From Candidatus Uhrbacteria bacterium (GTDB lineage: Bacteria; Patescibacteriota; Patescibacteriia; UBA9934; GWF2-40-263), in contig JAERTI010000041.1 of NCBI GenBank assembly GCA_016844925.1, positions 1 to 62,867 on the forward strand: 62,867 nt of DNA. Reading direction: 5' to 3'. Within the stretch, counting starts at the first letter, position 1. The number at the start of each line of letters is the position of its first letter. The notes beneath the pieces were generated by a model. It was not told where the DNA came from and ran no database searches. It was given only the letters and a program-made list of their open reading frames with translations. A program made the position numbers and the translations under genes. Below, piece after piece: positions 2 to 29,121 of this stretch.

Positions 2-352
2 GGAGGAACTACAAGTCAGTGTTCCGCTAGCAAACCCCTGTGAGCTACAAGTCTCACCATCGAGATCTGCGCCGTCGCAGGTCTCACCCGGATCGATAAA
101 TCCGTCTCCACAGAAGTACTCGAATCCGTCTCCTGCTTCTACTTCATAACTTGATGATTCTTGAAATCCTGGAATTGCCTCCACAGCCCCCTGCATTTGA
201 TAGCTCGTAGAGGTTGCCTCCGTTCCGTGTGTTGAGAGGAATCCCTGTTCTGGGAGAACCTCATAACTAGTGGAGGAGACCGCGCCCACGCTCCACGGCA
301 AGGCCATGAGCGTGAAAGCCACGAGCAAGAGCGGTAGTGTGTGTAATCTCAT
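2..352 (-). CDS. Secreted Cys-rich repeat protein (myxococcal Cys-rich/DUF4215-like), 5' part only; runs off the window edge
   Basis: Not in the ORF track; translated by hand from ATG at 352: MRLHTLPLLLVAFTLMALPWSVGA (signal peptide)...FCGDGFIDPGETCDGADLDGETCSSQGFASGTLTCSSS. CGDG-x5-E-x-CD motif; no stop before the edge. Confidence 0.8.
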   Translation of the reverse strand, partial: MRLHTLPLLLVAFTLMALPWSVGAVSSTSYEVLPEQGFLSTHGTEATSTSYQMQGAVEAIPGFQESSSYEVEAGDGFEYFCGDGFIDPGETCDGADLDGETCSSQGFASGTLTCSSS

Positions 353-378
353 AATCGTATGCTCGATTGACACGTGAT

Positions 379-1929
379 TTAGAAGGCGCCTGAGTAAGCA
401 ATCGCTGCAACAATGTTCCAGTCCTGATCAGAGCTTGGGAGAGCTCCGAATGCGTCCACAAACGTGGTGACTGCTGCAGACTCTGCCTCTAGGTCCTGCT
501 CCTCCGGTGTGTATCCGTGAACCATATAATCGATGGCGACCCAGTCTTCGTCAGAAGATGGGAGCTCACCTGTCAGCTGACCGAACCAGCCGATTGCCTG
601 CTGTTCAAGGGTCATCTCTTCCTCTTCTCCTGTCTCTTCTTCAACAACCTCTTCTTCCTGAGCCTCCTCTTCCATTGCTTCTTCCTCCTCTACAACCTCT
701 TCTGCTTCCTCACCCTGCTCGTCATAGGTGAGCAGGTCTGTGTAAGCAATCGTATGGAGGACATTCCATTCCATTTCTGTTGCTGGCATCTTGGCGTACT
801 TCTGTCCAAACAAGACGAGTGCATCTTCTTCAGCCTGCAAGTCGCGTGGGTCTCCCTGACATCCGCCGTAGGCAATACAGTGGAGAGCCTCCCAATCGTT
901 ACCAGACGATGGCATGCGTGCGTAGAACGCTCCGAAGTAAACGAGTGCCTCTGCCTCAAGGTTTACATCCTCTTCCATCTCTTCCTCTTCCATTACTTCT
1001 TCTTCCTCAACAACTTCTTCCTCTTCTTCTTCAGCGACCTCCTCTTCTTCTACCTCTTCTGCCACTTCCTCCTCTGCAGCCTCTTCTTCTGCTGCCTCAA
1101 GTGGGGTCAAGCCGAGTAAACCAGCTCCTACCTCTGTATAGGCCAGAGCGTGGATAGCGTACCAATCCATGTCTGAGGAAGGATTTGTTCCAAACACTTC
1201 ATTATAATAGGTAATGGCTGCCACCTCGTAAGCGGTGTCACGGTGGTCTGCATCGTAGCAATCATCGTAGGCAATACAGTGGAGCATATCCCACTGAGCC
1301 TCTGTAGAAGGAAGGGTTCCAGCCAGCGCGGCGTAGTAACCAAGCGCATCAGATTCTGCTGTTGCAGAAGATGTTCCTCCACTCACTTCTTCTTCCTCAC
1401 CTGCGTCTGTAGTCACCTCTTCAGCCTCACTATCAACAGCCTCACCGTCGATGGTGATGGTTGATGAGCCGAGGTTGTCTGTGTCGAGCATCTCCTCACC
1501 ATCGGCAATTAATCGTGAGTCGCTGGTAATGGAGATCGTGGCGGTACCAGAAGTGAGAGCACGGAACGTGATAGTTCCGAATGTACCTGAGCTCTCGACG
1601 GGGTCACCAAACTTGAAGGCTCCCTGAGAAAGCTCACCTGCGGTGTTATCAATCTCGTTTGATGGTGACACGTATGGAAACAAGCTCCCCAGATCAAACG
1701 CGGTGACCTCGAGCAAACTTTCGTCAAACTCGATCTCGACACGCGCAGTGTCTAGTGACTCTCCACTTGGGTCGACCATGACGCTCAAACTAAAACTGTC
1801 CCCTGTTGAGACCGAAGTGTTGGTCGGGGACAGCGAGAACGTAGCCGCGCCTGAGGCGTGGGCCGTGGAGATGCCGAAGCTTGCGATGGACATCGCAAGA
1901 CCTAGGAAGAGGACGGCGATCTTCTGCAT
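379..1929 (-). CDS. Secreted cohesin-domain protein with Glu-rich linkers and six C-terminal ~35-aa repeats
   Basis: Signal peptide; cohesin-like beta-sandwich (FSLSP...GDSFSLSVMVD...FDESLLEV...GTFGTITFRALTSGTATIS); three pairs of E-x2-A-x3-F/Y-x6-P-x4-W-x2-h-x2-hAY repeats. Confidence 0.85.
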   Translation of the reverse strand: MQKIAVLFLGLAMSIASFGISTAHASGAATFSLSPTNTSVSTGDSFSLSVMVDPSGESLDTARVEIEFDESLLEVTAFDLGSLFPYVSPSNEIDNTAGELSQGAFKFGDPVESSGTFGTITFRALTSGTATISITSDSRLIADGEEMLDTDNLGSSTITIDGEAVDSEAEEVTTDAGEEEEVSGGTSSATAESDALGYYAALAGTLPSTEAQWDMLHCIAYDDCYDADHRDTAYEVAAITYYNEVFGTNPSSDMDWYAIHALAYTEVGAGLLGLTPLEAAEEEAAEEEVAEEVEEEEVAEEEEEEVVEEEEVMEEEEMEEDVNLEAEALVYFGAFYARMPSSGNDWEALHCIAYGGCQGDPRDLQAEEDALVLFGQKYAKMPATEMEWNVLHTIAYTDLLTYDEQGEEAEEVVEEEEAMEEEAQEEEVVEEETGEEEEMTLEQQAIGWFGQLTGELPSSDEDWVAIDYMVHGYTPEEQDLEAESAAVTTFVDAFGALPSSDQDWNIVAAIAYSGAF

Positions 1930-2303: not shown

Positions 2304-3623
2304 TTACACTTCTGACCGAGGGAAAAATAATCGTGCCGTCTTTAAAATAATCAACACATCAAGCAGAAGCGACCGGTTCTTAATGTAGTACAAGTCATAC
2401 TCAAACTTCTCTCGAGAATCCATCACTGAGCGGGCATAGCGAAAATTAATTTGCGCCCATCCAGTGAATCCTGGCTTAATCAAATGACGAATGTGATAGT
2501 GCGGAATTTCTTTTTCTAGCTTCGCCACGAACTCTGGACGCTCCGGACGTGGCCCAACAAGCGAGATATCCCCACGCAACACATTGATAAGCTGCGGCAA
2601 CTCATCCAGGTGTGAGGCGCGCAAAAACGCTCCGACACGCGTCACACGTGAATCACGCTTCTGTGCCCACTGTGCCCCATGTACCTCCGCATTCTTTCGC
2701 ATGGACCGAAACTTGTAGATGGAAAACAGTCGCCCATTCTTCCCCACCCGCCTCTGACTGTAAAACGCGGGACCACGATCCTCGATCTTCACCGCCAGAG
2801 CAATCAAGAGCCAGACAGGTAGTGTCAGCACAAGAATCACTAATGCAATGAGGAAATCCCCAATGCGCTTCACTTGCTGATACAGCCCATCGTGACGCTC
2901 AGCGACATTTTGCAAAAACCATTTCTGATCCACAGCAGACAACGGAATCTTCTTAGAAAAACGCTCATACACCTGAGCGAAACTCATGTACGACGTCCCC
3001 ATAGGGAGTGTGGCATACATCACCTGCATGAGTCCTGGATCAGAAACGGACAGGTGTGGTAGCGCAATAACATGAAGACGGTGCTGTTGAATCTTTACTG
3101 AGAGGGACGCGTCCAGATCTGAAAAGACCATGCTCTCAAAACCCAAATGCCCATGCAGACGAATGAGGGCATGCAAATCCTGCGCCTCTCTTGGGCTACC
3201 AAAAATCCCAATCCGCCATGGATTCAGCTTTGCTAACTTCCGAAAAAACAAACTGCGCCACAAAAGCGCCACACCCCCAAACAACGCCACATGAACAAGA
3301 AGGTTTACCTTAGGAGTAATGGCCGTTGTAGGAACTAGGTAAAAGTATGCTGAGCCCAGAGCAAACAACAGGATAAGGCCCCCAAGGAATCGTCCAAAGA
3401 ATCGCTGAGAGGAGGGCATTAGGGAGAGGTCATAGAGGCCCAGGACGTAAAAACCCACTAACCAAAGGATATAGACAAAGGAAAAAGGAAGGACATGTGT
3501 GGAAAATGGCTCTGCATAGATCTCCCCAAACCGAACCCACATGGTGAGCGCGAGCGTTCCGTACATGAGTACTATGTCCCCTAGAAGCAGGATGAATTTT
3601 TTCTCTCGTAAATGCATGTACAC
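2304..3623 (-). CDS. Polyprenyl glycosylphosphotransferase (WcaJ/WbaP-family initiating sugar transferase)
   Basis: N-terminal TM helices; Bac_transf motifs KR-x2-D, F-x-h-YKFRSM, D-x-RVT-x-VG-x-FLR-x3-LDELPQ, SLVGPRPE, KPG-x-TGWAQ, YDLYYIKN. Confidence 0.92.
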   Translation of the reverse strand: MYMHLREKKFILLLGDIVLMYGTLALTMWVRFGEIYAEPFSTHVLPFSFVYILWLVGFYVLGLYDLSLMPSSQRFFGRFLGGLILLFALGSAYFYLVPTTAITPKVNLLVHVALFGGVALLWRSLFFRKLAKLNPWRIGIFGSPREAQDLHALIRLHGHLGFESMVFSDLDASLSVKIQQHRLHVIALPHLSVSDPGLMQVMYATLPMGTSYMSFAQVYERFSKKIPLSAVDQKWFLQNVAERHDGLYQQVKRIGDFLIALVILVLTLPVWLLIALAVKIEDRGPAFYSQRRVGKNGRLFSIYKFRSMRKNAEVHGAQWAQKRDSRVTRVGAFLRASHLDELPQLINVLRGDISLVGPRPERPEFVAKLEKEIPHYHIRHLIKPGFTGWAQINFRYARSVMDSREKFEYDLYYIKNRSLLLDVLIILKTARLFFPRSEV

Positions 3624-3649: not shown

Positions 3650-5560
3650 TTAGTAGAACTCTGCCAGAAGCGCGAGTGTCACCCCCTCTTCCACCATCTG
3701 CTGGGCAAGTGCGTGCAGCTTCTGAGCTCGTACCACTTCTGGTCCAGCCGCCAGTGAAGCTGAGGTTAAAGCCAAGGCCTCGTCTGTACGACCTTGCTCT
3801 AGATACACCGCCGCCAGAGCCCAATGAAGCTCATGTGAGTCGGGAGACACTTCAAGCCCCCTCTTAAGGAGTTCTTGAGCATCCTCAAGAGAGTACCCGT
3901 CAAAGTACCGCGCAGCTCCCTGATAGACGTACGCCAAATAAATATAGCTGCGAAGATAATGCGGAGCCCTCTCAATGGTTTGAAGATTCGCCCGCTCTGT
4001 CAGGGCAATCTCCTTTGTAAACAGCTCGCTAAGGGCTTCTGCCTGCACCGCATCGACGCGCCAGAGCGCGTTCCCTGTTTCGTTTGCCAAAAAAGCGCGA
4101 CGGAAATCAATGCCATAACCAGATCGTGTTGTCGCCACCTCATATAATTCCAGTCGTTGCTCCGCTGTTGGCGCCGAGAGCACGCGCACGGTCGCACGGT
4201 GCCCAGAAAATGGAAGGGCTACAAAAAAAACGAGAGCAGCTGGTAAAAGAATGGTTGCTGCCGCAGGAACCCATGTCGCCACCTGACGTGGAGCCTTCTT
4301 TGCTCCCAAAACGTGCCCCACAAGTGCGAGTGCCACGATCCACATGAGGAGCGTGGTCAACGAATCGAAGACGGTCAGACTTTGTACGACATACGCCGCG
4401 AGCCCCGCAAGCAGAACTGAAGCGGCAAGGTCTCCTTCCCTAAGCCTGCGGAACAATCCGCGTACCACTACCGCCCACAGGAGAACAAACACCATCAAAC
4501 CAACCAGGCCCACATCAAGAAGAAGATCTAAGGGCTTGCTATGTACGCGATCGAACCAAGGATTCTCGTCGCAGCGCAGAGAACCAAAGCAAGGGTCATA
4601 ATGTGTGGCGATCACCGCGGGAACGTTCTCAGGACCCCATCCAAAAATAGGACGTTCAGCAGCCCCTTCAAGGGCAATGTCCCAAACAACGAATCGTGCC
4701 TCGCCCGTCTGATGAATAATCGCCTCACGCACGGCACTACCAGGCACGAAGGCGAGTGTGACAATCGAGACGAACGTTAGAGCAAGCACTGTCACAAGAC
4801 CCACGGCCGTCAGTCGGCCCGCGCGTGAACGTGCCCTCTGCCAAAGAGCCAAGGCGGCAAACAAAACGCCACCACCAAAGAATGCATAGATCGAAGCGTA
4901 GGCCGTTGTTGAAAGAAGTGTAAAGATGAATAGAGCCAGAACACTAAGAGCCAACAGGCGAGACCGTCTCATTGCAGATCGCACCGCCAAGACCCCGACG
5001 AACATCATGTTTAACAGCAAATACGCCCCAAAAAATGAAGAATTCCCAATGGTCGATCCACCCGTGCTCCCAAGGACTGCACGTAGCCCTACCACTTCCC
5101 CGAGGTGCGCCAGGGACACGAGAGTCGCCACCATCGCAGCGACGGCCAAGAACGCATTCCAATCTCGCTGTGATCGCAACACTCCCGTCAGGACCGGGTA
5201 GAGGGCACCTAAATGAAACCAAAAGAGCAGCCCCGTGGACCGCTCTATGCCAGAGTAAAAACTCATCAGTGGATCAACACCAAACACTGTTGCCAATGCC
5301 AATGCTCCGATAAATACGTAGAGCCACACGCCAACGCTTCCGATCCGTGGCGCGTACTCCTTTCGACGGGAAGCTAACCACAGATACAACACCACGGTCA
5401 GCTCGCTGAGCAAAAGAAACGCATGAGCCTTGGTCGAACCTAATGGAAACAAGAGGCCTCTCCACTGCACCAGTGGGATCAACAAGTGAAGCGCCAGCCC
5501 CACGCGCACTGCCCAAAGCAGACCCACGTCCCATCTCGTCATTTGGGGAAGCTTGTTCAT
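3650..5560 (-). CDS. O-antigen ligase (Wzy_C)/O-oligosaccharyltransferase-like membrane protein with C-terminal TPR, paralog 1
   Basis: Many TM segments; GSTIGNSSFFGAYL; R-x2-W...RP-x-FGWG-x-EN; DRVHS; TPR-like C-terminus (LHWALAAVYLEQGRTDEALAL). Confidence 0.85.
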   Translation of the reverse strand: MNKLPQMTRWDVGLLWAVRVGLALHLLIPLVQWRGLLFPLGSTKAHAFLLLSELTVVLYLWLASRRKEYAPRIGSVGVWLYVFIGALALATVFGVDPLMSFYSGIERSTGLLFWFHLGALYPVLTGVLRSQRDWNAFLAVAAMVATLVSLAHLGEVVGLRAVLGSTGGSTIGNSSFFGAYLLLNMMFVGVLAVRSAMRRSRLLALSVLALFIFTLLSTTAYASIYAFFGGGVLFAALALWQRARSRAGRLTAVGLVTVLALTFVSIVTLAFVPGSAVREAIIHQTGEARFVVWDIALEGAAERPIFGWGPENVPAVIATHYDPCFGSLRCDENPWFDRVHSKPLDLLLDVGLVGLMVFVLLWAVVVRGLFRRLREGDLAASVLLAGLAAYVVQSLTVFDSLTTLLMWIVALALVGHVLGAKKAPRQVATWVPAAATILLPAALVFFVALPFSGHRATVRVLSAPTAEQRLELYEVATTRSGYGIDFRRAFLANETGNALWRVDAVQAEALSELFTKEIALTERANLQTIERAPHYLRSYIYLAYVYQGAARYFDGYSLEDAQELLKRGLEVSPDSHELHWALAAVYLEQGRTDEALALTSASLAAGPEVVRAQKLHALAQQMVEEGVTLALLAEFY

Positions 5561-5563
5561 ATA

Positions 5564-7570
5564 CTATAAGTACAACTGATACAGCAATGCTTGTCTATCT
5601 GAGTCGAGCAACTCTTCAATCTTCGTAGAAAGGTTTGGATGAACATCAAGCGCCTCAACAATCGCTATGTCCAGAGCCTCTTGGTCTTCATCAAACGTAA
5701 GCGCCAACACGTGAAACAAATGCGCATTGGAAACACCTGGCGAGACCTCACGAATGAACCCCGTAAGAGCCAGCGCCTCATCTACTCTCCCCTGATCCAG
5801 ATACACAGAGGCGAGTTCCCAATACGCCTGTGGGTGCAAAGGGTTCTGCTCGATGGCTCCGAGCAGGACACGCTCAGCGTCCGCATAGGCCGCTGGATCA
5901 ATAAAGTGGGCTCTGGCGTGATGAAGAAGCCCTAAGTCAATCCAGGCTCGCAAAGGATTCGGTGAGTTATCGATCGTATCGTTAAGCGCCTCCGTAGCTA
6001 GATCAAGCTCCACCATCACAAGCGGGAGAATTTGCTCGAGTGTCTGTTCATCAACACTCCAAATCACTGCCCCAGTTTGGTTCGCCATGTACACCCGGCG
6101 ATCATCGATGCCGATCTTGCCTGACGTAACTGCCGTACGATACGCCGCAATACGTTCTTCTCCCGTCGTGGCATTGCTCGCATCTACCACAGCCGCTGTT
6201 CCCTCAATGGAAGGAAGGACTCCCTTGGTAAATAGCATGACCGCACCAACCGTGACGAGGATCGGCACCACGGCAAACCAGCGACCGTATGCAGGTGAAC
6301 TCTTGCGTTCATCCGTTACGAGTGTCTCCACCATCGCTAGAGTAAGAACCCACATCACCAGAACAACTGGAATATCTAGGATCGTTAAATTCTGAACGAA
6401 GTGGGCAGCGAAAATCGCTGTAAGCACGGCCGCAATAGGAGCCTTTATGTTTTTGTTACGCACCCCTCGATACAGTCCCCACAAAGCGATACCAAGAATC
6501 GAAAGATAACTTACGAGCCCAAGTACTCCCATCTCAATCCAGACATCTAAAAGTTTGTTGTGCGCACGATCCACCCACATCTCGTACCCACACAATGCTG
6601 ATCCAAAACAAGGATCGTAATGATTGAGAGAGACGATTTGAAACGTCTCAGCCCCCCAACCAAACCCAGGGCGCTCAAGAATCCCCTGCCAAGCGTGATC
6701 CCAAATAATGAGCCGCGAGCTCGATGAAAGCTCTGTAAATGTTTGATGAATGAAACTCCCAGGCTGAAACGTGGAAGCTATCACCCCCACGGTAGTAAGC
6801 GTTAACACAATCAGCCCTGCGATACCTACCCGACGCCGACCAATTGATGGACTGACTACCAACAGAAGCCCTCCTAGCAACACCAATCCACCGATCGTAG
6901 AAATAAGCGCCGCATACGCCGTGGAAAGCGAAAGGGTGCCGAGAAGAAACGTGGCTGTACCAAACCCATACCACCGAGAGGCCGTGGCTTGCGCTCGTAT
7001 CGCAATAAGGAGAGCAAAGAATATGTGAAAGAGCAGGTAGGCTCCCAAAAACGACGAGTTCCCTATCGTCGAACCGTTCGCTGCCGCATAGGCCACGTCT
7101 ATCCCTGAAAGGTGAAGGAGCTGTATCACGGCAATAACGACAGCCATACCTGTACTCACATGAAGGAGCTTGAGCCAGTCGGCCTCAGGACGGAATAATC
7201 CACAAACAACAACAAACAAGGCCAGTAAGTGGAGCCACATAAACCCGCCACTGTGCCGATCAAGACTCCCCCAAAAACTTAAAGATGGATCCACTCCCAA
7301 GGCCCCTGTCACGAGCACAAGCGCGACAAATATCGAGAGAGCGATGCCAACTGGACCTAAGCGTGGAGCCTTACTGGGACGTACATACACTAGCCAGGCG
7401 TAGCCGATCACGAGCAACTGAATCATTCCCATCAACGCAAAGGCCTTGGCGGAAGAGTAGGAATAGTAGAGCTGCGGCGTGTTCAACAAAGGGACCCCCA
7501 AAAGGACAAACACACCGACTTGAAGCATCCGCTCAAGCCAGTGTGCCGCATCTCGCTCTGATTGTTTCAT
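5564..7570 (-). CDS. O-antigen ligase/O-OTase-like TPR protein, paralog 2
   Basis: Same motifs: GSTIGNSSFLGAYL, RPGFGWGAETF, DRAHNK, AYWELASVYLDQGRVDEAL. Confidence 0.85.
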   Translation of the reverse strand: MKQSERDAAHWLERMLQVGVFVLLGVPLLNTPQLYYSYSSAKAFALMGMIQLLVIGYAWLVYVRPSKAPRLGPVGIALSIFVALVLVTGALGVDPSLSFWGSLDRHSGGFMWLHLLALFVVVCGLFRPEADWLKLLHVSTGMAVVIAVIQLLHLSGIDVAYAAANGSTIGNSSFLGAYLLFHIFFALLIAIRAQATASRWYGFGTATFLLGTLSLSTAYAALISTIGGLVLLGGLLLVVSPSIGRRRVGIAGLIVLTLTTVGVIASTFQPGSFIHQTFTELSSSSRLIIWDHAWQGILERPGFGWGAETFQIVSLNHYDPCFGSALCGYEMWVDRAHNKLLDVWIEMGVLGLVSYLSILGIALWGLYRGVRNKNIKAPIAAVLTAIFAAHFVQNLTILDIPVVLVMWVLTLAMVETLVTDERKSSPAYGRWFAVVPILVTVGAVMLFTKGVLPSIEGTAAVVDASNATTGEERIAAYRTAVTSGKIGIDDRRVYMANQTGAVIWSVDEQTLEQILPLVMVELDLATEALNDTIDNSPNPLRAWIDLGLLHHARAHFIDPAAYADAERVLLGAIEQNPLHPQAYWELASVYLDQGRVDEALALTGFIREVSPGVSNAHLFHVLALTFDEDQEALDIAIVEALDVHPNLSTKIEELLDSDRQALLYQLYL

Positions 7571-7581
7571 AAAGGAACCGA

Positions 7582-9585
7582 TTAAAAGTGAAGGAGCACG
7601 AGAAGACGTTCACGCTGCTGCTCTAAGTCTGCCGCTAAGAGCGTAAGAACATCTGCCTCCGATTTTGGATCCAGAAGAAGAGTCTGCTCTGCCGCAGCCT
7701 CAAGCGCTTCTCGATCTCCTGTAAACAACAAGGCCATCATATGAAAAATATGTGCCCGTGGAACATCCGGAGAAACGGTGACGATGTGCTGTGTAAGCGC
7801 CACGGCCTCATCCACTCTCCCCTGATCCAAATAGATAGATGCCAAAGCCCAGTGTGCTTGGGGTTGTAAGGGGTTATTCTCAACTGCCTCAACGAGAAGA
7901 TCTTCAGCACGATCCAACATTTCAGGATCGAGTTTGCGCGAGGCCCCCTGCAGCGCATAGGCAAGCTCCAGCTGTCCGCGCAAATAATTTGGCGACTCTT
8001 CTAATGTCTCGCCAATGACCTCTTCAATGAGGGCCAACTCTTCTCGTAGGAATGTCTCAATTTGAGGAACAGATTCAACAGGCACATCCCACATCACCTT
8101 GGCGGTCTGGTTCACAAGGTAAACACGTCTAAAATCAATACCAATTGGAGAGAGCGTAACAGCACGTTCATAGGCCTGTGAACGATCTTCAAGTGTTGTT
8201 GCCAACACAGTCCGGCCAACCGCCGTGTTCCCCTGCGCTGGCTGCACGACAAAAAAGATCAGGGCGAACACCGTCACAATACTGGCCGCCAGAGGCATGA
8301 GGACAGGAAGCTGCTTACCCTCATGGACCTTAGGTGCGCGCGTGAAAGCTTTTGAACCCGCAGAAGCAGCGAAAGCTAACGTGAGTACAAACATGAGCAG
8401 GCCTGATGACATGTCCAGAATTGTCAGGTTCTGCACAACATACGCAGCCAACACACTCCCAAGCACCGCAAGCTCAGCCACGCGCTCTTTCACAAGAGAG
8501 CGAATAGCCACCACAAAGATCCCAACATAACTCACAAGCCCAACAATGCCGGCCTCCACGAGCAGGTCAAGGACCTTGTTGTGCGCTCGATCAAACCAAA
8601 GCTCGTGACCACAGTACTCGCTTCCAAGACACGGATTGTAAAACTCGAGTGAGACGAGCTGGAAGTTTTCCAGACCCCACCCAAACAACGGACGGGTGAG
8701 GAATGCCTGCCACGCCATATCCCAGACGACGAACCGCGACCCCGTGGCAATATCTGTAAACCACGTGTACACGACGCTCCCTTCTTGGAAGGCGAGCGCA
8801 ACGGTAGCAAGGAACCCAAGAGCAAGCGCCAGGAAGAGCCCCCAGCCAGCCTTGCGTCGACCAGAAGTTTTCCCGCCAGCCATCAACAAGAGTGCGGCGC
8901 AAAGAATCGCTCCACCAACCAACGAAATCTTTGCGGCGTTGGCTGTCGTCAGCATGAGCGTCACCGCGAGAATAGCCCCTGAGACCATCCCATACGTGCG
9001 TAATCGCCCTTTTGCTCTGAGTCCAAGATAGGCCGCGAAGCCGATTTGAAAAAGAAGATACGTCCCAAAAAATGAGGAGTTTCCAAACGTGGATCCGCCA
9101 CGCTGCGCGCCAATCGCCTCAATCCCCATGAGCGTAAACAAGTGCACCGCAGCTGTAACAAGAGCCACACTCACTGATACGGCAAACAATCCAAGCCACT
9201 GCTCTCGTGAACGAAAGAGCGTGGTGACCACCCAGAAAAACCCAAGCAGATGCAGCCACATGAGCCCACCGGTAATACGGTCGACGCTGGCCCAGAAACT
9301 AAACGAAGGGTCGACGCCAAAAAACGATGTAACGAGTAGGATCGCCACAAACACACTCAGGGCGATTCCCACTGATGTGCGGACTGGTCGGATATCTGGG
9401 CGCAGCCACATGAGCCAAATCACTCCCAAGACGAGAAGATCGACAAGGCCCATAATCACATACGCCTTGGTTGTTGTGTAAGGAAACAGAAACGCTTTGG
9501 AGTACACAAGAGGTACCAACACGGTGGCATACACCCCCCACCTCAGAAGCGTTTGTAAATGATCTGCCGGAGTAGATTCGGTCAT
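7582..9585 (-). CDS. O-antigen ligase/O-OTase-like TPR protein, paralog 3
   Basis: Start revised to ATG 9585 (MTESTP) because the longer track ORF overlaps paralog 4 and matches no paralog. GSTFGNSSFFGTYL, RPLFGWGLENF, DRAHNK. Confidence 0.85.
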   Translation of the reverse strand: MTESTPADHLQTLLRWGVYATVLVPLVYSKAFLFPYTTTKAYVIMGLVDLLVLGVIWLMWLRPDIRPVRTSVGIALSVFVAILLVTSFFGVDPSFSFWASVDRITGGLMWLHLLGFFWVVTTLFRSREQWLGLFAVSVSVALVTAAVHLFTLMGIEAIGAQRGGSTFGNSSFFGTYLLFQIGFAAYLGLRAKGRLRTYGMVSGAILAVTLMLTTANAAKISLVGGAILCAALLLMAGGKTSGRRKAGWGLFLALALGFLATVALAFQEGSVVYTWFTDIATGSRFVVWDMAWQAFLTRPLFGWGLENFQLVSLEFYNPCLGSEYCGHELWFDRAHNKVLDLLVEAGIVGLVSYVGIFVVAIRSLVKERVAELAVLGSVLAAYVVQNLTILDMSSGLLMFVLTLAFAASAGSKAFTRAPKVHEGKQLPVLMPLAASIVTVFALIFFVVQPAQGNTAVGRTVLATTLEDRSQAYERAVTLSPIGIDFRRVYLVNQTAKVMWDVPVESVPQIETFLREELALIEEVIGETLEESPNYLRGQLELAYALQGASRKLDPEMLDRAEDLLVEAVENNPLQPQAHWALASIYLDQGRVDEAVALTQHIVTVSPDVPRAHIFHMMALLFTGDREALEAAAEQTLLLDPKSEADVLTLLAADLEQQRERLLVLLHF

Positions 9586-9586
9586 A

Positions 9587-11605
9587 CTAAAGATGTAGTC
9601 CGTATAAGAAATAGATGCGACGCTCGCTGAGATCCGCCTGAAGCAGAACGGATACTTTTTCGAGCAATGCAGGATAGGTATCAAGAGCCTCTGTGGCCGC
9701 CTGGCGAATAACCTCTTCGTCTTGGAGGAAGACGGCGCCAACCACGTAGTTGTAATAGCTCACTGGGAGCTCTGGAGCAAACGTTCGTACTTGCTCAAGA
9801 AGCTCGAGAGCCTCTGTTGTCTTTCCTATCTCCAAGTAGAGAGACGCAAGTGCCCAATAAGGTTCTGGGTGCACAGGGTTGCGAGCCACCGCTTCAACCA
9901 TGACCTGTTCAGCAACCTGGTAATACTGTGGGTCAAAGTGACGGCCGCGTGCCTGTTCCAAAATAGCGATCGCCAGCGGTGCTCGCAAGTAGTTTGGCGA
10001 TGTGTCCATGGTAGCAAAAAGGGCCTCAACCTGCTGATCAACTTCACTCATCACCTGACTCTCCATGCCCGAGAGCACCTCAATCGATGTAGACCAAAGC
10101 ATGCGCCCAGTCTCATTTGCCGCATAAACACGGCGTAAATCCTCCCCCTGAGGAGATCCGTGCATGGCGCGCGGAAGATTCTCCAGGCGCTCGTCAAAAC
10201 TCATGCCGTAGCTAGAGGCGATCAGAGCGGCGTTGGCGCGCACAGGCTGAATGACAAGGGTGGTAAGGGTGATGGGCAAAAGCAAGGAAGCGAGCACGGC
10301 CGATGGGAGCACCCATGCTGATCGCTTGGCCGTCGGGGTTGTATCCACCGAAGACGTGAGCGACGAGATCCAGGCAAGGGTGAGCACCCAGAACATCATC
10401 GTTGTTGCCACATCTAGCACCGTGAGATTCTGGACAGCGTACGCTGCCAACAGCCCCACCCCCAAGGCTGCCATCTCTCGCATGGATCGCTTTGTTACTC
10501 GCCTGAGCAACGCACGTATGGCGACAAAGAACACGGCCAGGTAACTGAAGAGTCCGAGGAATCCAGCCTCGACCCCGACGTCAAGCAACTTGTTGTGTGC
10601 GCGGTCGTACCACATCTCATGACCACATCGCTGCGAACCGAGGCAGGGATTGTAGTACTCCAAACTGACATACTGAAAATTCTCAAGCCCCCAACCAAGG
10701 AGAGGACGATCCTTCATCGCCTCCCAGGCCATGTCCCACACAATAAATCGAGAAGAGGTTGAGAGGCCTGTGAACGTCTGTTGGAGAGCTGAGCCGGGAG
10801 TGAATGCCAGGGCGACCGTGAGAAAAAAGATAAGGGCGAGTGTAATCGTGAGTGCTTGGCCAGCGCGAGATACTTCGTCTCGAGATGATCCCCACAGCCA
10901 GATCCCCAGCGCAAGAATCGCTCCACCAGCCAGAGAGATCGTCGCAGCGTTTGCCCCCAAGGTGAGCAAGATACCGATCAACACAAGCGCCGCCACCCCC
11001 CCATAAATACGCCGGCGTTTCGTGCTCCCCACTCTCCAGAGCCACGCAGCGAAAAAGATTTGGAAAAGAAGATACGCCCCATAAAAGGACGTGTTCCCGA
11101 GTGTTGAACCCCCAGAGGTACCGACCATGTGCGCAATGCCAAGTACGTCCAACAGGTGAATCGCCGCGCTCACAAGAGCCACAGCAACCGAGACCGTAAG
11201 CAAACGCTGCCAATCTTCCTTCGTGACAAACACCGTACGGGCGACCAAGTACAGCGCTAATACATGCAACCACATGAATCCACCAGTAATACGATCGACG
11301 CTCGCCCAAAAACTAAACGACGGATCTACGCCAAATAGTGAGGCAAGCATGAGTATCGCAACAAATACCGTCAGGGCCACCGATGTCGCATCCCAGCGCC
11401 ACCTGCGCTCAGGCCGCTTCACCAAGAGCCAAAGTGCCCCCACAGCAATAACCTCAACCAGGGCGAAGATGACGTATCCCTTTGTTGAACTGTGCGGAAA
11501 CAGAAGACGCGGCGAAAATACGAGAGGAGTACACATCAGGAGGTAAACTCCCCAACGAACCAAACGCTCGAGCCAGTCAGATTGGGCAAATGATGGGCGT
11601 TTCAT
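9587..11605 (-). CDS. O-antigen ligase/O-OTase-like TPR protein, paralog 4
   Basis: GSTLGNTSFYGAYL, RPLLGWGLENF, DRAHNK, TPR-like tail. Confidence 0.85.
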   Translation of the reverse strand: MKRPSFAQSDWLERLVRWGVYLLMCTPLVFSPRLLFPHSSTKGYVIFALVEVIAVGALWLLVKRPERRWRWDATSVALTVFVAILMLASLFGVDPSFSFWASVDRITGGFMWLHVLALYLVARTVFVTKEDWQRLLTVSVAVALVSAAIHLLDVLGIAHMVGTSGGSTLGNTSFYGAYLLFQIFFAAWLWRVGSTKRRRIYGGVAALVLIGILLTLGANAATISLAGGAILALGIWLWGSSRDEVSRAGQALTITLALIFFLTVALAFTPGSALQQTFTGLSTSSRFIVWDMAWEAMKDRPLLGWGLENFQYVSLEYYNPCLGSQRCGHEMWYDRAHNKLLDVGVEAGFLGLFSYLAVFFVAIRALLRRVTKRSMREMAALGVGLLAAYAVQNLTVLDVATTMMFWVLTLAWISSLTSSVDTTPTAKRSAWVLPSAVLASLLLPITLTTLVIQPVRANAALIASSYGMSFDERLENLPRAMHGSPQGEDLRRVYAANETGRMLWSTSIEVLSGMESQVMSEVDQQVEALFATMDTSPNYLRAPLAIAILEQARGRHFDPQYYQVAEQVMVEAVARNPVHPEPYWALASLYLEIGKTTEALELLEQVRTFAPELPVSYYNYVVGAVFLQDEEVIRQAATEALDTYPALLEKVSVLLQADLSERRIYFLYGLHL

Positions 11606-11666
11606 AGAGTAGGCTCGTGCTGGATAATATCCCCAGAATATGTGCTATTGTAGGGGACAAACCCGT

Positions 11667-13760
11667 ATGTCGCAACGAAAGAACGGACATCTCAGACGCG
11701 TCCTGGAGTGGGGCCTGACCCTCACCCTCTTGCTCCCGCTAGCCGTCGTAGCGAACCCGTTTTCAGATACCTCCTACACCACGTTCTTCACCCAAGGCAT
11801 GCTCTTTCAGCTCCTGGTGGAAGGCCTCGTAATCGCCTGGCTCTTTGCCATGGCAAAAGACAACGCACTGCGCCCACCATGGCGCCACCCCATCGTGCTA
11901 ACAGCCACGATGTTTTTGTTTGCGACCGCATTCACCCAACTCTTCAGTATCTGGCCCGAAAGGTCATTTTGGTCCACGCAGGACCGCATGACGGGCGTCT
12001 TTCATAATCTACACGTGTGGGCCTATCTGCTTGTTCTCGTTTCGACGGTCGACACGCAGGCCATGTGGGAGCGTCTCGTTCGCTGGTCTGTGAGCGTCTC
12101 GGGAATCGTCAGTGCCTTGGCCATGATCCAATGGCTTGCGCTTGATGGGGGCCGCATCACTTCAACCCTCTCGAATCCAAACAATCTTGCACTCTACGCC
12201 CTACTCCACATCTTCCTCGCGCTCTGGCTGCATGCACGTACAAAGAAGCGTTGGCCCCTTGCCATTGGTGCACTACATATCCTGACGATCTTCATCGCAG
12301 GCTCTCAGGGGGGACTCGTTGCGCTCTCCGTTGGTGGAATAACTTGGGCTGCACATCGATGGATACAAAAACCTCTAACAAAAACGGTGGCGATTACCCT
12401 CTTGGGGGCAGCTCTCCTCGGGGCGCTACTCACATTTGCAAACGCAGGCATACTCGCACAGCACCTTAACCAAGAAACCCGTGGCACGCTCGTCCACAGC
12501 GTGACAGAGCGCCTTGAGCTCTGGAACATCGGCTGGCAGGCATTCACGCAGCACCCCGTCGTCGGCTGGGGCTACGAAACCTTTACTGTGCCATTTGATC
12601 AACTCCGTGATGCTCGCGTGCAAACCAACATGACCGAACGCTGGGCCGACCGCGCCCACAACCAGTGGCTCGACGCGCTGGTAAGCACGGGCCTCATCGG
12701 CTTCACGGCCTTGATCGCCCTGTGGGGAGCCGCTCTCTGGTCCAGCCGAGAGGACCGAGCGCTCTTCTGCGCCCTTGTCGCGATCCCAATCTTCCAATCC
12801 GTCCAGTTTGATACCCTCTATTCAACGATCTTCCTGACATTCATCTTTGGACTCATTGCATACCAGTCTCGACACACCTCCACAAAGAACACCGACGCCC
12901 ACGGCACAACCTTGCTATGGCTCCCCGTTGTAGCGAGTGTGATTCTGCTCCCCATCGCCTCATACGCCAACATCAACTCTCTCACCCTCAATATGCAGAA
13001 AACTGCTGCGGTGCAGGCGCTCAACACAGACCTGGTCGTAGCACTAGAAAAAACAGCGGCAACGCTAGCAAACCCTTCTCCCTATCGCTACAACATGCGC
13101 CGACAAATCGCCGCGGAAGTCTTTGAGCACCCGTCAGGAATCCTGAAAATGAACACTGATGAATCACACGCTCTCATCGCCCTCCTTGCCGATCAAATTC
13201 ATGATGAAAACCAGAAAGACCCAGCTGAACTCCGCCTCCTGCTCGCCAGCTTTTGGCTCCACAGCAGTCTGGCTACGTCCGATGCAGACGCGGCCGAGAG
13301 AGCACGGCAGAGCGTCTTGCTGATGCAAGATATTGCCCCCACACGCCCAGAGACGTATGCTTCTTTGGCCATCCAACATGTGGTAGATGGGAACATCATG
13401 GAGGCCATCGACGCCTACGAGATGGCAACTGCACTGGCGTTTGATCAATCATCAGAAACGTCTTATCGCATTGAACAAGCAAATCTCTATGCCGGGCTCG
13501 GAGCGTGGGAAAACATGCTCACAAGCCTCGAGGGCATCGATACCATCGCTACGACACAGCTAGCACGAATCGTCCTCTCGGCAGCAAGTGCTGTTTCACA
13601 AGACAACCCTCCCCCAGACCTCTTCCTTTCCTACGTGGTCATGACGGCAAACAACAGTGCAGACAATCACTCTGTGCTGGAAGCAGCCATCACCATCCTG
13701 GAAACCGGAGGTCGGATGGAAGATGCAAACATGATTCGAAATTATCTTGAGGGGCGCTAA
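11667..13760 (+). CDS. O-antigen ligase/O-OTase-like protein, divergent paralog 5
   Basis: STLSNPNNLALY, HPVVGWGYETF, DRAHNQWLD, helical-repeat C-terminus. Start taken at ATG 11667, downstream of TGCTATTGT. Confidence 0.8.
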   Translation: MSQRKNGHLRRVLEWGLTLTLLLPLAVVANPFSDTSYTTFFTQGMLFQLLVEGLVIAWLFAMAKDNALRPPWRHPIVLTATMFLFATAFTQLFSIWPERSFWSTQDRMTGVFHNLHVWAYLLVLVSTVDTQAMWERLVRWSVSVSGIVSALAMIQWLALDGGRITSTLSNPNNLALYALLHIFLALWLHARTKKRWPLAIGALHILTIFIAGSQGGLVALSVGGITWAAHRWIQKPLTKTVAITLLGAALLGALLTFANAGILAQHLNQETRGTLVHSVTERLELWNIGWQAFTQHPVVGWGYETFTVPFDQLRDARVQTNMTERWADRAHNQWLDALVSTGLIGFTALIALWGAALWSSREDRALFCALVAIPIFQSVQFDTLYSTIFLTFIFGLIAYQSRHTSTKNTDAHGTTLLWLPVVASVILLPIASYANINSLTLNMQKTAAVQALNTDLVVALEKTAATLANPSPYRYNMRRQIAAEVFEHPSGILKMNTDESHALIALLADQIHDENQKDPAELRLLLASFWLHSSLATSDADAAERARQSVLLMQDIAPTRPETYASLAIQHVVDGNIMEAIDAYEMATALAFDQSSETSYRIEQANLYAGLGAWENMLTSLEGIDTIATTQLARIVLSAASAVSQDNPPPDLFLSYVVMTANNSADNHSVLEAAITILETGGRMEDANMIRNYLEGR

Positions 13761-13772
13761 CCCTCCTTCTCT

Positions 13773-14738
13773 ATGAAAAAAACGATTCTTATCACTGGCG
13801 GCGCTGGATTCATTGGTGCGCACTTAGCCAAGCGACTCGGACAAGACGGTCACGAGCTTATCCTCGTTGATAACTTTAACGACTACTACGATCCAGGACT
13901 CAAAGAGGCGCGCATCAGCGAGCTGCTCAAGGACACACCACACACCCTCTACCGCGCGGACCTGAGCGACCTGCCCGCCATGGAAGCCATTTTCAAAGCG
14001 CACCAGATCGACCACATCGCCCACCAAGGAGCGCAAGCCGGCGTACGCTACTCACTTGAGAATCCCTTCACCTATGGCGAGTCGAACCTCATGGGCACGC
14101 TCTACCTCCTCGAGCTCGCGCATCGCCACGGGGTCAAGGGCATCACACTCGCCTCTAGCTCCTCCGTCTACGGCGACGCCAAGGTCATCCCTATCAAAGA
14201 ATCCGACTGCGAAGACAAGCCCATTTCCCTCTACGCCGCCACCAAGCGCGCCACCGAGCACATGGCGCACGCCTACCACCACCTCTACGGCATGCCCATT
14301 ACCTGCCTGCGCTACTTCACCGTCTACGGCCCTTGGGGGCGCCCAGACATGGCCTACTTCAAGTTCCTTGATCTTGCCTACGCCGGCAAAGGCATTGATG
14401 TCTACGGCCAAGGCAAGATGGCACGCGACTTCACCTACATCGATGACATTGTCGAGGGCATTGCGCTCTCCATCGAAAAAAACCACCCATGGGCGGTTCT
14501 TAATCTCGGTCGTGGCCACGCTGAGCAGCTCATGGACATGATCTCTCTCATCGAGGGCTACACCGGCATCACCTTTGAAAAAACATTCCTCGACATGCAA
14601 CCCGGCGACGTTCGTGAGACTTGGGCGGATACGAGCCAGGCGAAAGAACTGCTTGGCTGGGAGCCGAGTGTTCCGCTCGAAGAAGGACTCAAACGTTTTG
14701 TCGCATGGTATAAGGAATACTATCGAAAGGACGCATAA
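13773..14738 (+). CDS. NAD-dependent nucleotide-sugar epimerase (UDP-glucuronate 4-epimerase-like)
   Basis: TGGAGFIG, QAGVRYSLENP, ASSSSVYG, YAATK, RYFTVYGPWGRPDMA, RDFTYIDD, QPGDV. Confidence 0.9.
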   Translation: MKKTILITGGAGFIGAHLAKRLGQDGHELILVDNFNDYYDPGLKEARISELLKDTPHTLYRADLSDLPAMEAIFKAHQIDHIAHQGAQAGVRYSLENPFTYGESNLMGTLYLLELAHRHGVKGITLASSSSVYGDAKVIPIKESDCEDKPISLYAATKRATEHMAHAYHHLYGMPITCLRYFTVYGPWGRPDMAYFKFLDLAYAGKGIDVYGQGKMARDFTYIDDIVEGIALSIEKNHPWAVLNLGRGHAEQLMDMISLIEGYTGITFEKTFLDMQPGDVRETWADTSQAKELLGWEPSVPLEEGLKRFVAWYKEYYRKDA

Positions 14739-18638: not shown

Positions 18639-19892
18639 ATGACGTTTTCTTCAATAAAACGAGGAGTCTACCGTTTCCTGAAGTGGTCTGAAAAGTATAC
18701 ACGAACGGACATGATCTATCTGGCAAGAGGGAGCTTTTGGATGTCTGCCAAACGCGTTGTGTACGTGGCCACAGCTTTTGTTGTCGCCATCACCTTCGCG
18801 AACTTCTTCCCTCAAGAAGCCTACGGTGAATACAAATATCTTCTCTCCATGGCAGGACTCCTGGCCATTGTCACCATGCGTGGACTCAATACGTCCTACC
18901 TCAGAACCGTCTCAAGGGGGTATGAGGGGATGTTCTGGCCTGTACTGCGCTCGCGTTTAAAATGGGGACTCTTGGCAAGCGTAGCTTCCGCTGCCGTTGC
19001 ACTATACTACTTCTACCAAGGAGATATCACCATGGCCACGGGATTCTTTCTCTCGGCACTATTTGTTCCGCCACTCAATGCCTTCACCGTATTCATCCCG
19101 CTGCTGAACGGACGAAAACATTTCCAGCTTTCCGCGCAATACGAAACCATCGTCCAGATAGTCGCAGCCACATCCATCATCGTCACGGTGCTCGCCACCG
19201 ATACCGTTGGCTGGGTGCTCCTCAGCTACTTTGTTTCGTATACCCTCATGCGCATCATCGTGACACATATCGTCACACAACGACATGCGCCCAACAACAA
19301 CACCGAAGACGACACCATCTCCTACGGAAGGCATCTCACCGCTATGGTCGCCATAGGGGACGTGGCCTCACGCATTGATTCTATTTTGACCTGGCATTTT
19401 TTAGGAGCCGTTCCACTTGCGATCTACTCCTTTGCCAACATGCCAACAAAACACCTGCGCTCCCTTGTCTCCAGCACAGGTCTTCTTGCCCTTATCAAAC
19501 TCTCTGAAAAAGATAAGGACAAAATAAAAAAGACCCTCCCCAGGAAGATCGGCATCTTTTTTCTTGGCATCGTGCCCATTGTCATCGCCTACATTCTTGC
19601 GGCACCCCTTCTTTTTCAAATCGCCTTTCCACAATACATCGAGGCGGTTCCCTACACCCAGGTCCTCTCACTGTCCCTGCTCTTCTATCCAAAGATTCTC
19701 TTTGGCTCTGCGCTCACTGCCCACGCAGAAAAAAAGTCGCTCTACATCATGAACATCACTACTCCCCTGGTGAACATCACTCTGCTACTCATCCTCCTTC
19801 CACTCTACGGAATTTGGGGACTTGTGGGTGCAACGCTCGGAACACAAGTCTTTAAAACAGGACTGCTCACCTGGCTCTTTATCCGAATGTAA
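18639..19892 (+). CDS. Wzx-like oligosaccharide flippase
   Basis: About 12 TM segments, MOP-family pattern (YGEYKY, G-x-YS-x-A, YGIWGLVGAT). Confidence 0.82.
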   Translation: MTFSSIKRGVYRFLKWSEKYTRTDMIYLARGSFWMSAKRVVYVATAFVVAITFANFFPQEAYGEYKYLLSMAGLLAIVTMRGLNTSYLRTVSRGYEGMFWPVLRSRLKWGLLASVASAAVALYYFYQGDITMATGFFLSALFVPPLNAFTVFIPLLNGRKHFQLSAQYETIVQIVAATSIIVTVLATDTVGWVLLSYFVSYTLMRIIVTHIVTQRHAPNNNTEDDTISYGRHLTAMVAIGDVASRIDSILTWHFLGAVPLAIYSFANMPTKHLRSLVSSTGLLALIKLSEKDKDKIKKTLPRKIGIFFLGIVPIVIAYILAAPLLFQIAFPQYIEAVPYTQVLSLSLLFYPKILFGSALTAHAEKKSLYIMNITTPLVNITLLLILLPLYGIWGLVGATLGTQVFKTGLLTWLFIRM

Positions 19893-28044: not shown

Positions 28045-29121
28045 TTATGTCGTAAATTCTTGATACAATCTTTGCTCCACAGGGTACAGCAGCTTTTCAA
28101 TCAAGGAAATGCCCCAAAGCAAAAGTGCCGTGCCGTGAATATCTGGTTCTTGCAACCCCTTCGTAATAACAGCCTTGTAGTAGTACGTATTTGCGTTTCG
28201 TTCAAAGAACGAGAAACCTCCGTACTCTGGCCACCAGTGCTTTCGATAGAGATCAAGTCGCTCCATTGCAAAACGACGAATCTCCTCTGGTCGATACGAT
28301 CCCCCAAGAACCTCGTTTGCATACTTGAGCACGTAAATCACATTGAACAGGTTACAGGCATGTGGATCATGGCTAGCTTGAAGCGCCAGATCAACGAGCT
28401 CACGTGCATAGTCAAACTCCATCCGTTCGGCCGCCTTGAGTCCCGTAAGGATCTTCATGGCTCCATTAATCTTCTGTTGCAAACTCGGTGTTCCCCGGAA
28501 CCAACTCCCCGTCTTAGGGTCTTGTATCTGATGTACCCAATCGATGGCATGCTGCACAAGAGCATCTCGATCAGGTAACTCACTTCGATGTAAGAAAAAT
28601 AATAGGTGTGAAAAATGACTCCCCGCTCCCCAAGGCTTGCTCCAGTTTAGCCTACCGAGATACTGGTCGATGCCCTTGTTTGTACGTGGCAGTCCCTGGA
28701 GCCCAATCGAGGGACGCTCCCCAAGAAGCTCCAGTGCGGAGATAGATTGTCGTGTTTCGGCACGAGCCGTCTGCGCATGAAAGAAGTTTTGAACATTTCG
28801 ATGTCGTAAACCTGAAAGTTTTTCTCGCCAAAATGCCTTTCGCGCAACCAGAGGATCAACATATTGCCCACGCCGCGTTCGAAACGATTCGATAAACTGC
28901 GTCATCTGCTCACGCCGCTCTCCCAGCGTACCGAGCAGGCCGAGCGTGTAATAACTCTTCACAGCAAAAACCGTGTTCCCAAGACCCCACAGTGCATGTT
29001 CGTCGAAGAGGTCTCCTGTAAGTGAGTAGCGATAAAAACCTGGTACCGTATACCCCTGCATGGAAACAAGAAACTTAGGTACCTCTTCGCTCACTTGCTT
29101 CAGCCACTCACGCTCATTCAT
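28045..29121 (-). CDS. Conserved hypothetical protein of glycan loci (possible alpha/alpha-toroid fold)
   Basis: 358-aa ORF tightly packed in the operon; W-x2-PWGAGSH, QDPKTGSWF, GGFSF motifs. Function unknown. Confidence 0.6.
   Translation of the reverse strand: MNEREWLKQVSEEVPKFLVSMQGYTVPGFYRYSLTGDLFDEHALWGLGNTVFAVKSYYTLGLLGTLGERREQMTQFIESFRTRRGQYVDPLVARKAFWREKLSGLRHRNVQNFFHAQTARAETRQSISALELLGERPSIGLQGLPRTNKGIDQYLGRLNWSKPWGAGSHFSHLLFFLHRSELPDRDALVQHAIDWVHQIQDPKTGSWFRGTPSLQQKINGAMKILTGLKAAERMEFDYARELVDLALQASHDPHACNLFNVIYVLKYANEVLGGSYRPEEIRRFAMERLDLYRKHWWPEYGGFSFFERNANTYYYKAVITKGLQEPDIHGTALLLWGISLIEKLLYPVEQRLYQEFTT

Follow-up and report, generated by a model that had tools for sequence, protein, structure and literature searches.

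The window analysed here is a stretch of 62,867 nucleotides from Candidatus Uhrbacteria (contig JAERTI010000041.1), a marine bacterium of the Candidate Phyla Radiation (CPR). About 10 kb of that genome is given over to an array of five genes, here called P1 to P5, whose products join a membrane-embedded Wzy_C enzyme to a tail of helical repeats. Taken together, the sequences are best explained if these genes encode non-redundant transferases that move glycans en bloc, using the fold shared by the ligase WaaL and the protein O-oligosaccharyltransferase (O-OTase) PglL. The enzyme kind itself is, of course, known; it is abundant, and it is ordinary for CPR bacteria. The copy number is unusual. 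More exactly, what sets this array apart is that five genes, of two types, are selectively maintained side by side in a very small genome.

Architecture and catalytic residues

Four of the genes lie in tandem on the minus strand. P4 (9587-11605, 672 amino acids) is the first of them, followed by P3 (7582-9585, 667 amino acids), P2 (5564-7570, 668 amino acids) and P1 (3650-5560, 636 amino acids), with gaps of only 1, 11 and 3 nucleotides within the tandem. P1 is the last array gene before the gene for a phosphoglycosyl transferase (PGT), from which 26 nucleotides separate it. P5 (11640-13760, plus strand, 706 amino acids) is transcribed divergently from P4, the two starts lying 34-61 nucleotides apart, and heads a plus-strand operon that continues with an epimerase. 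The open reading frames and their spacing are thus as the original prediction described them: four tandem paralogs 1-11 nucleotides apart, and a fifth, divergent one. Two starts can be placed in more than one way. The ATG of P3 is nested in a longer open reading frame that begins with TTG, and relatives are called with the 667-residue form; for P5, the gene caller starts at the Met at 11667, giving 697 amino acids.

The gap between P4 and P5 (11601-11675) holds two overlapping, back-to-back pairs of sigma-70-like hexamers, TTGCGA-17-TACAAT on the minus strand and TTCATA-16-GATAAT on the plus strand. The promoter scan overall returned 7 matches against 7.9 expected, which is not above chance, and none of the RNA-seq runs contained the stretch.

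All five proteins match the Pfam Wzy_C model above its gathering score, with 41.6-77.2 bits against a cut-off of 31.7 and E-values from 1e-10 to 1e-21 (4.5e-11 for P1, 1.5e-21 for P5). In the alignment, the Arg of SR[FL]xxW, the GWGxE motif and the DRxH[NS] motif are kept in all five, which bears out the earlier report of Wzy_C-type GWG-x-E and DR-x-H motifs in every paralog. Across 85 homologs, only R286, G304, G306, H337 and G348 (P4 numbering) are invariant. The catalytic pair of E. coli WaaL is R288 and H338. Here, R286 aligns to R265 of WaaL from Cupriavidus metallidurans (CmWaaL) and R298 of PglL, while H337 aligns to H313 and H349, respectively; the spacing from Arg to His is 51, identical to that in PglL. 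Every copy keeps both residues, the loss of which from most copies would have spoken against the original prediction. R298 and H349 are the catalytic residues given for PglL of Neisseria meningitidis (PMC3643930). Two further polar residues of P4 fall at positions that are polar in PglL: N171 at the position of Q178, and D398 at that of E404.

The AlphaFold2 model of P4 (mean pLDDT 94.9, pTM 0.93) has a WaaL-fold core within a set of 13 membrane helices. When this model was compared with the PDB using Foldseek, the sole significant fold match was WaaL (7tpg_B, E 2.5e-8, TM-score 0.64 on the target, 437 columns); all other matches were tetratricopeptide repeat (TPR) proteins aligned to the tail. 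The 13th helix, residues 432-455, is followed by a TPR solenoid of 200 amino acids. The model of P5 (pLDDT 87.9) has the same architecture of 13 transmembrane (TM) helices and helical repeats, and in the models the external repeat domain spans 200-250 amino acids. Pfam TPR_19 and TPR_16 are matched by P1-P4 (for P1, TPR_19 at 7e-8), and P5 has no Pfam TPR match. The TPR-like tail that had been attributed to all five is therefore there, seen by Pfam in four copies and by the AlphaFold model in P5.

Topology was assigned from the AlphaFold2 helices, the positive-inside rule and the known topology of WaaL. The loops of P4 that are rich in Lys and Arg (64-72, 193-199, 368-377 and 426-428) are so placed that the catalytic loop (268-338) is predicted to lie outside the cell. 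It follows that the 13th helix would carry the TPR solenoid to the outside as well, so that the model puts the catalytic loop and the tail on the same face of the membrane.

More distant comparisons lead to the same superfamily. A profile of the N-terminal parts of 18 family members matches PDB 7tpg (WaaL) at 4.4e-15 over 176 columns and PDB 9rmk, a 610-residue entry named “Oligosaccharyltransferase,” at 5.5e-13 over 309 columns. The residue numbers of 9rmk are those reported by Schulz et al. for N. meningitidis PglL (Q178, N180, H349, H400, E404 and P406; PMC3643930); 9rmk thus appears to be that protein or a close homolog. Profiles were needed to see this, as a single-sequence phmmer search of the PDB with the P4 core gave no match. 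Against E. coli K-12 WaaL, hhalign returned 62% probability over 269 columns. No NCBIfam model was above its cut-off and no ligase model was found at E<0.1, the only other hits being sub-threshold TPR noise; P5 reached just 22 bits against TfpM, for which the cut-off is 600. The Wzy_C match, the WaaL fold match and the two profile matches together support the membership in the WaaL/PglL superfamily that had been assigned from motifs.

P1-P4 have a cysteine motif, PC[FL]GSxxC, that P5 lacks, just as had been noted. Its occurrence follows the Uhrbacteria clade, with the addition of one protein of Paceibacterota. CmWaaL (7tpg) also has two cysteines, C299 and C307, in the equivalent loop.

Origin and maintenance of the array

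Pairwise identity is 34-45% among P1-P4, and 21-24% between these and P5. In a maximum-likelihood tree, P1-P4 fall in a clade found only in Uhrbacteria (support 100/100), while P5 falls in a separate deep clade, whose stem measures 2.43 substitutions per site, together with proteins present as single copies in other Parcubacteria. Thus, P5 is not, as the original prediction had it, the fifth member of one paralog expansion, and a recent origin as one more copy of that expansion is ruled out by the same separate ancient clade. The best other homolog of P5 is only 34% identical. It occupies the same position in the related locus L036, where it faces a P4-like gene and heads an operon of an epimerase and glycosyltransferases (GTs) whose products share 51-76% identity with their counterparts in the window.

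The members of the other type can be followed individually in relatives, which are identified here by their locus labels. An ortholog of P1 (63% identity) occupies the corresponding place in L001. P3 has orthologs in the sister strain L032 (98%), in L001 (60%) and in L033 (56%), and P4 has orthologs in both L001 and L033. P2, a lineage-specific paralog on a long branch, is sister to the P4 group; no ortholog of it was found in L001 or L033, and two orthologs, P0012 and P0014 (90-91%), come from other samples. DNA similarity between the paralogs is limited to short stretches that encode motifs, with no gene-conversion tracts or long identical tracts found between them. The tree, the orthologs across genomes and the lack of conversion tracts make the array a product of old duplications. 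Judged by these sequences, the duplicates P1-P4 are real but old, and the array as a whole is the outcome of a birth-and-death process in which old duplications and later gains and losses joined two ancient types.

Copy number varies accordingly among relatives. The window has five copies, L033 (a 51% relative) has four, and three are found in L001, L003 and a Joint Genome Institute (JGI) contig (56-63% relatives) as well as in L007; several other Uhrbacteria have two and other Parcubacteria have one. Across these 1-5 copies the order of the surrounding core is kept. In Uhrbacteria it runs from an epimerase through one to five Wzy_C-TPR genes to the PGT and then three proteins with Sec signals, while the GT cassettes on the opposite side vary. 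Within 10-kb flanks, no simple correlation was seen between copy number and cassette type.

Nearly all relatives belong to the Parcubacteria/Paceibacteria branch of the CPR (among them Uhrbacteria, Nealsonbacteria, Niyogibacteria, Giovannonibacteria and Adlerbacteria); one relative, 31% identical, is labelled Actinomycetota. A profile search of 1.84 billion representatives clustered at 50% identity gave at least 150 full-length matches above 580 bits, 490-852 amino acids long (most of them 620-820). The same search returned 21,329 proteins at E<=1e-30, a number to be read as an upper bound, since TPR-rich proteins may be counted in it.

The ratio of nonsynonymous to synonymous substitution (dN/dS) was calculated between the window and L032. 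For whole genes it is 0.044 in P3, 0.10 in P4 and 0.14 in P5; for the C-terminal domains it is 0.02-0.12, and for the neighbouring sugar enzymes 0.02-0.16. P3, P4 and P5 are therefore under purifying selection in both of their domains. The array is also stable. Contigs from other marine metagenome studies, at approximately 90-95% identity, span all of it, and no deletion joint across the array was found in them.

One apparent joint was considered and rejected. A contig of depth 49 from run X3 connects position 2555 to position 14424, skipping 11868 nucleotides. Its matching side is only 31 letters long and its depth is higher, and it probably consists of the PGT and epimerase segments of another organism rather than marking a strain that lacks the array.

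These observations bear on the simplest view of five similar genes, namely that most of them are redundant or decaying duplicates without a function of their own. The range of 1-5 copies among related genomes does imply that not every copy is indispensable. Decay, however, would not be expected to leave all five genes intact with their catalytic residues, nor to hold dN/dS at 0.04-0.14 across both domains in the three copies measured. Further, the duplications are old, their products have orthologs across genomes, no conversion tracts are seen, and the array is kept in other populations. We regard redundancy as very improbable, and all five copies appear, from their sequences, to be functional.

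A different view is that one or more copies are polymerases of the Wzy type, or chain extenders, while the others attach the product. The Pfam family Wzy_C (PF04932) does include some Wzy polymerases. The locus, moreover, has a Wzx flippase and a PGT with no separate Wzy candidate in its approximately 33 kb, and P5, which belongs to the other ancient type, stands at the head of a glycan operon of its own, as does its 34% relative in L036. Weighing on the other side, the paralogs have one large external loop bearing the Arg...His pair of WaaL and PglL, rather than the two-loop layout of Wzy. The hhalign probability against the K-12 Wzy polymerase WbbH is 0.6%, against the 62% for WaaL, although Wzy sequences are too diverse for such a negative to decide the matter. 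No Wzz-like co-polymerase was seen in the locus or elsewhere in the window, and about eight GTs would suit a long oligosaccharide that is not polymerized, as in general O-glycosylation systems. Polymerase activity in some copies therefore seems to us quite unlikely.

If the copies are distinct transferases, the question is what part of the protein distinguishes them. It had been proposed that diverged TPR tails select different acceptors. Within P1-P4, conservation peaks in the catalytic loop (43-68% identity); the TPR core (28-51%) is on a par with the full-length proteins (34-45%), and the membrane core, the part that binds the lipid-linked donor, is as diverged as the tail. Among conserved sites, a fixed difference separates the ortholog groups of P3 and P4 at 8 of 49 in the C-terminal part versus 10 of 122 in the membrane region and loop, an enrichment in the tail that is not significant (Fisher p=0.17). 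Together with the low dN/dS of the tails, these values give the proposal no support. The pattern of divergence neither marks the tail as the specificity element nor excludes it from that role.

Within the conserved core, the Wzy_C-TPR genes as a group evolve fastest. Between the window and L001 their products are 58-63% identical, whereas the epimerase reaches 88%, and the PGT and the asparagine synthase homolog AsnB 80% each.

Proposed mechanism, candidate acceptors and known systems

What we infer for these enzymes, in chemistry, acceptor and division of labor, is as follows. The adjacent PGT, from what is known of its family, would start a glycan on undecaprenyl phosphate. About eight GTs, with enzymes for amino-sugar, acetyl, methyl and amido tailoring, would finish that glycan in the cytoplasm, and Wzx would flip it across the membrane. 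There, the external loop of a Wzy_C-TPR enzyme, with Arg286 and His337, would move the chain from its lipid carrier to an acceptor on the outer face. The 13th TM helix would set the TPR solenoid on the side of the catalytic loop, outside, where it would most plausibly hold a protein partner. The copies would probably divide their tasks, either by acceptor or by donor glycan. Here, the best-supported mechanism is that of a protein O-OTase resembling WsfB or PglL, for which a monoderm precedent exists, and we would give it about an even chance of being right.

If the acceptors are proteins, the best candidates are surface proteins exported by Sec, and the most specific and concrete among these are encoded by a trio of genes downstream of the PGT. 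The first (379-1929, minus strand) encodes a secreted protein with a signal peptide, a cohesin domain (Pfam Cohesin, 9.7e-9) and Glu-rich spacers. Of the second, the window holds the C-terminal part (2-373, minus strand), which is 88% and 71% identical to its counterparts in L001 (19211-20062) and L033 (16619-17500). In relatives, this protein has approximately 285 amino acids, is secreted, is rich in Ser and Thr (26-27%), has six cysteines, and has a dockerin-like end with the motif DFNEDSxVDDYDFSxLVARW. The third, again in relatives, is cohesin-like, with a C-terminal TM anchor and an RRKKS tail. The trio follows the PGT in all Uhrbacteria loci examined (L001 17670-21403; L033 15609-18845), and signal peptides are found in its proteins. 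By its sequence, the trio resembles a surface assembly built from cohesins and dockerins, here in a CPR bacterium.

Nothing in the window speaks for pilins, which had also been named among the possible acceptors; as the array has no pilin gene next to it, they were rejected.

Several points weigh against transfer to protein. To our knowledge, no experiment and no glycoproteome exists for any member of the CPR. The cohesin protein is acidic and not notably rich in Ser and Thr (16% for the two together). The number of enzymes varies from one to five while the trio is constant, which argues against a scheme of one enzyme for each trio protein. In sequence, and in a small reference tree, the family is equidistant from WaaL and PglL. 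The references in that tree are E. coli WaaL together with 7tpg and 9rmk, of which the aligned parts were used; they sit on very long branches at a base of the CPR family that is not resolved, so the tree cannot assign function. In favor of the original prediction, on the other hand, the paralogs cluster neither with WaaL of E. coli nor with the K-12 Wzy, and such a grouping would have spoken against it. WaaL and PglL are, in any case, not separable by simple sequence analysis (PMC3643930). The PglL/PglS class is marked by the domains PglL_A and Wzy_C_2 beside Wzy_C (PMC12645811, PMC3643930), and neither PglL_A (PF15864) nor Wzy_C_2 (PF11846) was detected in any paralog at E<=0.01. Last, TPR domains also scaffold polysaccharide export (reference cited within PMC2943079), and the tail therefore need not bind a protein acceptor.

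Some of these same points favor a second kind of ligase, one that would attach the glycan to a non-protein acceptor such as a membrane glycolipid anchor, peptidoglycan or another wall polymer, with the TPR domain as an assembly scaffold. Such enzymes are known; the Wzy_C protein TacL transfers to the glycolipid anchor for the lipoteichoic acid of pneumococcus. The best structural and sequence match of the paralogs is WaaL, whose acceptor is lipid-linked; the marker domains of the PglL class are missing; and TPR scaffolds have an established place in polysaccharide export. The locus has, in addition, no LCP-family or other wall-attachment enzyme, and some enzyme must anchor any non-protein glycan. 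Against this, the characterized ligases with lipid acceptors (WaaL, approximately 400-420 amino acids; the 7tpg chain, 413) lack the extra helix and the external repeat domain of 200-250 amino acids. The alignment also reaches further in the PglL-like OTase, 309 columns versus 176, and covers the polar positions specific to PglL. Genes for secreted proteins are consistently adjacent, and one lipid anchor would give little reason for five ligases. On balance, a non-protein acceptor seems to us rather unlikely.

The reading in which the acceptor is a protein gains from comparison with the closest known systems, which are WsfB of Paenibacillus alvei CCM 2051T and, listed beside it, WsaB/WsaA of Geobacillus stearothermophilus. 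WsfB is an S-layer O-OTase, predicted rather than reconstituted according to the review, in which, as in PglL, Wzy_C is combined with a C-terminal TPR (PMC2943079). In its slg locus, initiation falls to the WbaP-like WsfP; an asparagine-synthase homologue, WsfA, is also encoded there, and G+C is lowest in the central genes, which are strain-specific (PMC2943079). Judged from that description, the window shares with P. alvei the Wzy_C domain with its C-terminal TPR, a presumably monoderm-type envelope, the WbaP-like PGT, the asparagine-synthase homologue and the low-G+C center. The differences are that P. alvei has one enzyme where the window has five, and a known S-layer glycoprotein where the window has cohesin/dockerin-like neighbours.

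PglL of N. meningitidis is alike in its Arg/His pair, the spacing of 51, the Pro 15 residues and the Gly 18 and 20 residues after the Arg, and the polar residues at the Q178 and E404 positions. It is also alike in its length of approximately 600 amino acids and its C-terminal external extension, and the window locus carries a di-N-acetyl (diNAc) amino-sugar toolkit (DegT, PglD-like). It differs in having the two class domains undetected here, in an identity of approximately 22% at most, and in being single-copy in a diderm. WaaL (7tpg, E. coli K-12) gives the best fold and profile match, with R265 and H313 aligned to the invariant Arg and His. It has, however, 12 TM helices, approximately 400-420 amino acids and no external repeat domain, whereas the paralogs have 13 helices and 636-706 amino acids. 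The acceptor of WaaL is lipid A-core. Lipid A-core genes are generally lacking in CPR bacteria, and no lpx, kds or waa genes were found in the 62.9-kb window.

Single genomes that carry several Wzy_C-family transferases of divided acceptor specificity are already known. Acinetobacter has two OTases per genome, a pilin-specific TfpO/PglS and a general PglL, and Yersinia enterocolitica has three WaaL homologs (PMC12645811, PMC3643930). These are, however, two or three dispersed genes rather than five in one array, and the O-OTases among them adjoin pilin genes. TfpO and TfpM, O-OTases specific for pilins, likewise sit beside the gene for their pilin substrate, unlike the array. In the literature searched on O-antigen ligases in Parcubacteria, no description of five Wzy_C-family transferases in one array was found.

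A stronger claim would be that the Uhrbacteria run the largest known battery of protein O-OTases, two ancient types in 2-5 tandem copies, each matched to its own surface acceptor or lipid-linked glycan, be these parts of the cohesin-dockerin assembly next to the array or products of the composite locus. This we put forward as a tentative possibility. If it were true, an episymbiont with a genome of approximately 1 Mb could display a combinatorial, fast-evolving coat of glycoproteins. The CPR, or Patescibacteria, make up a large share of bacterial diversity and live attached to other cells, and their surface chemistry is almost unknown. Five maintained, fast-evolving copies point to the attachment of surface glycans as a major adaptive trait, be it for host attachment or for evasion of phages or predators. 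For the protein engineer, five related enzymes are a natural set in which to study acceptor and donor specificity within the WaaL/PglL fold, with relevance to glycoengineering of bioconjugates. The protein family is, of course, very common, and there is a Gram-positive precedent for the activity; thus, the finding extends a known theme and opens no new one.

The neighbouring glycan locus

The array stands at the edge of a Wzx-type glycan locus of approximately 33 kb. On one side of it is the polytopic PGT (2304-3623, minus strand, 439 amino acids), which is WbaP/WsfP-like and matches Bac_transf at 2.6e-68; the array does, as first noted, lie directly beside the initiating transferase. A PGT occupies the same position in L001, L033, L005, L006, L007 and L009. 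On the other side, 12 nucleotides after P5, is a gene for an NAD-dependent sugar epimerase/dehydratase (13773-14738, plus strand; Pfam Epimerase, 8.8e-59), whose orthologs (60-88%) border the array in every Uhrbacteria locus examined.

The rest of the locus (14720-35114), as seen in Pfam scans, encodes six GT4 and two GT2 glycosyltransferases, an AsnB-like amidotransferase, a DegT aminotransferase, PglD-like and hexapeptide acetyltransferases, a NUDIX protein, three methyltransferases (MTs) and a kinase fusion; between 13.8 and 35.1 kb, two epimerase/dehydratases are among the enzymes. The Wzx flippase is at 18639-19892 (plus strand). Beside it is the Pkinase/APH-like fusion (19879-21648, minus strand), a protein of 589 amino acids with a kinase-like C-terminal part that is also present in L032; its role may be to phosphorylate a sugar or to regulate the pathway. 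A soluble protein of 358 amino acids (28045-29121, minus strand) has no Pfam match and recurs in the same cassette in L007, L009 and L036 (36-60% identity), which makes it a candidate for a cassette-linked enzyme.

G+C falls to 44-46% in the center of the locus, at 22-32 kb, from approximately 50-55% (about 52%) at its edges. The genes of the center (GT4c/d/e, MT1/3, the 358-residue protein and DegT) match the cassette of L007, L009 and L036, while those at 13.8-19.9 kb match the cassette of L001. With these two matches, the locus looks like a composite of two cassettes.

Further along the window, at 47816-48556 on the minus strand, is a gene for a DsbA-like thioredoxin (Thioredoxin_4, 1e-24; DSBA, 9e-21). 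Such an enzyme would fit extracytoplasmic disulfides, as the two-cysteine loop motif of P1-P4 and the six-cysteine protein of the trio would need them.

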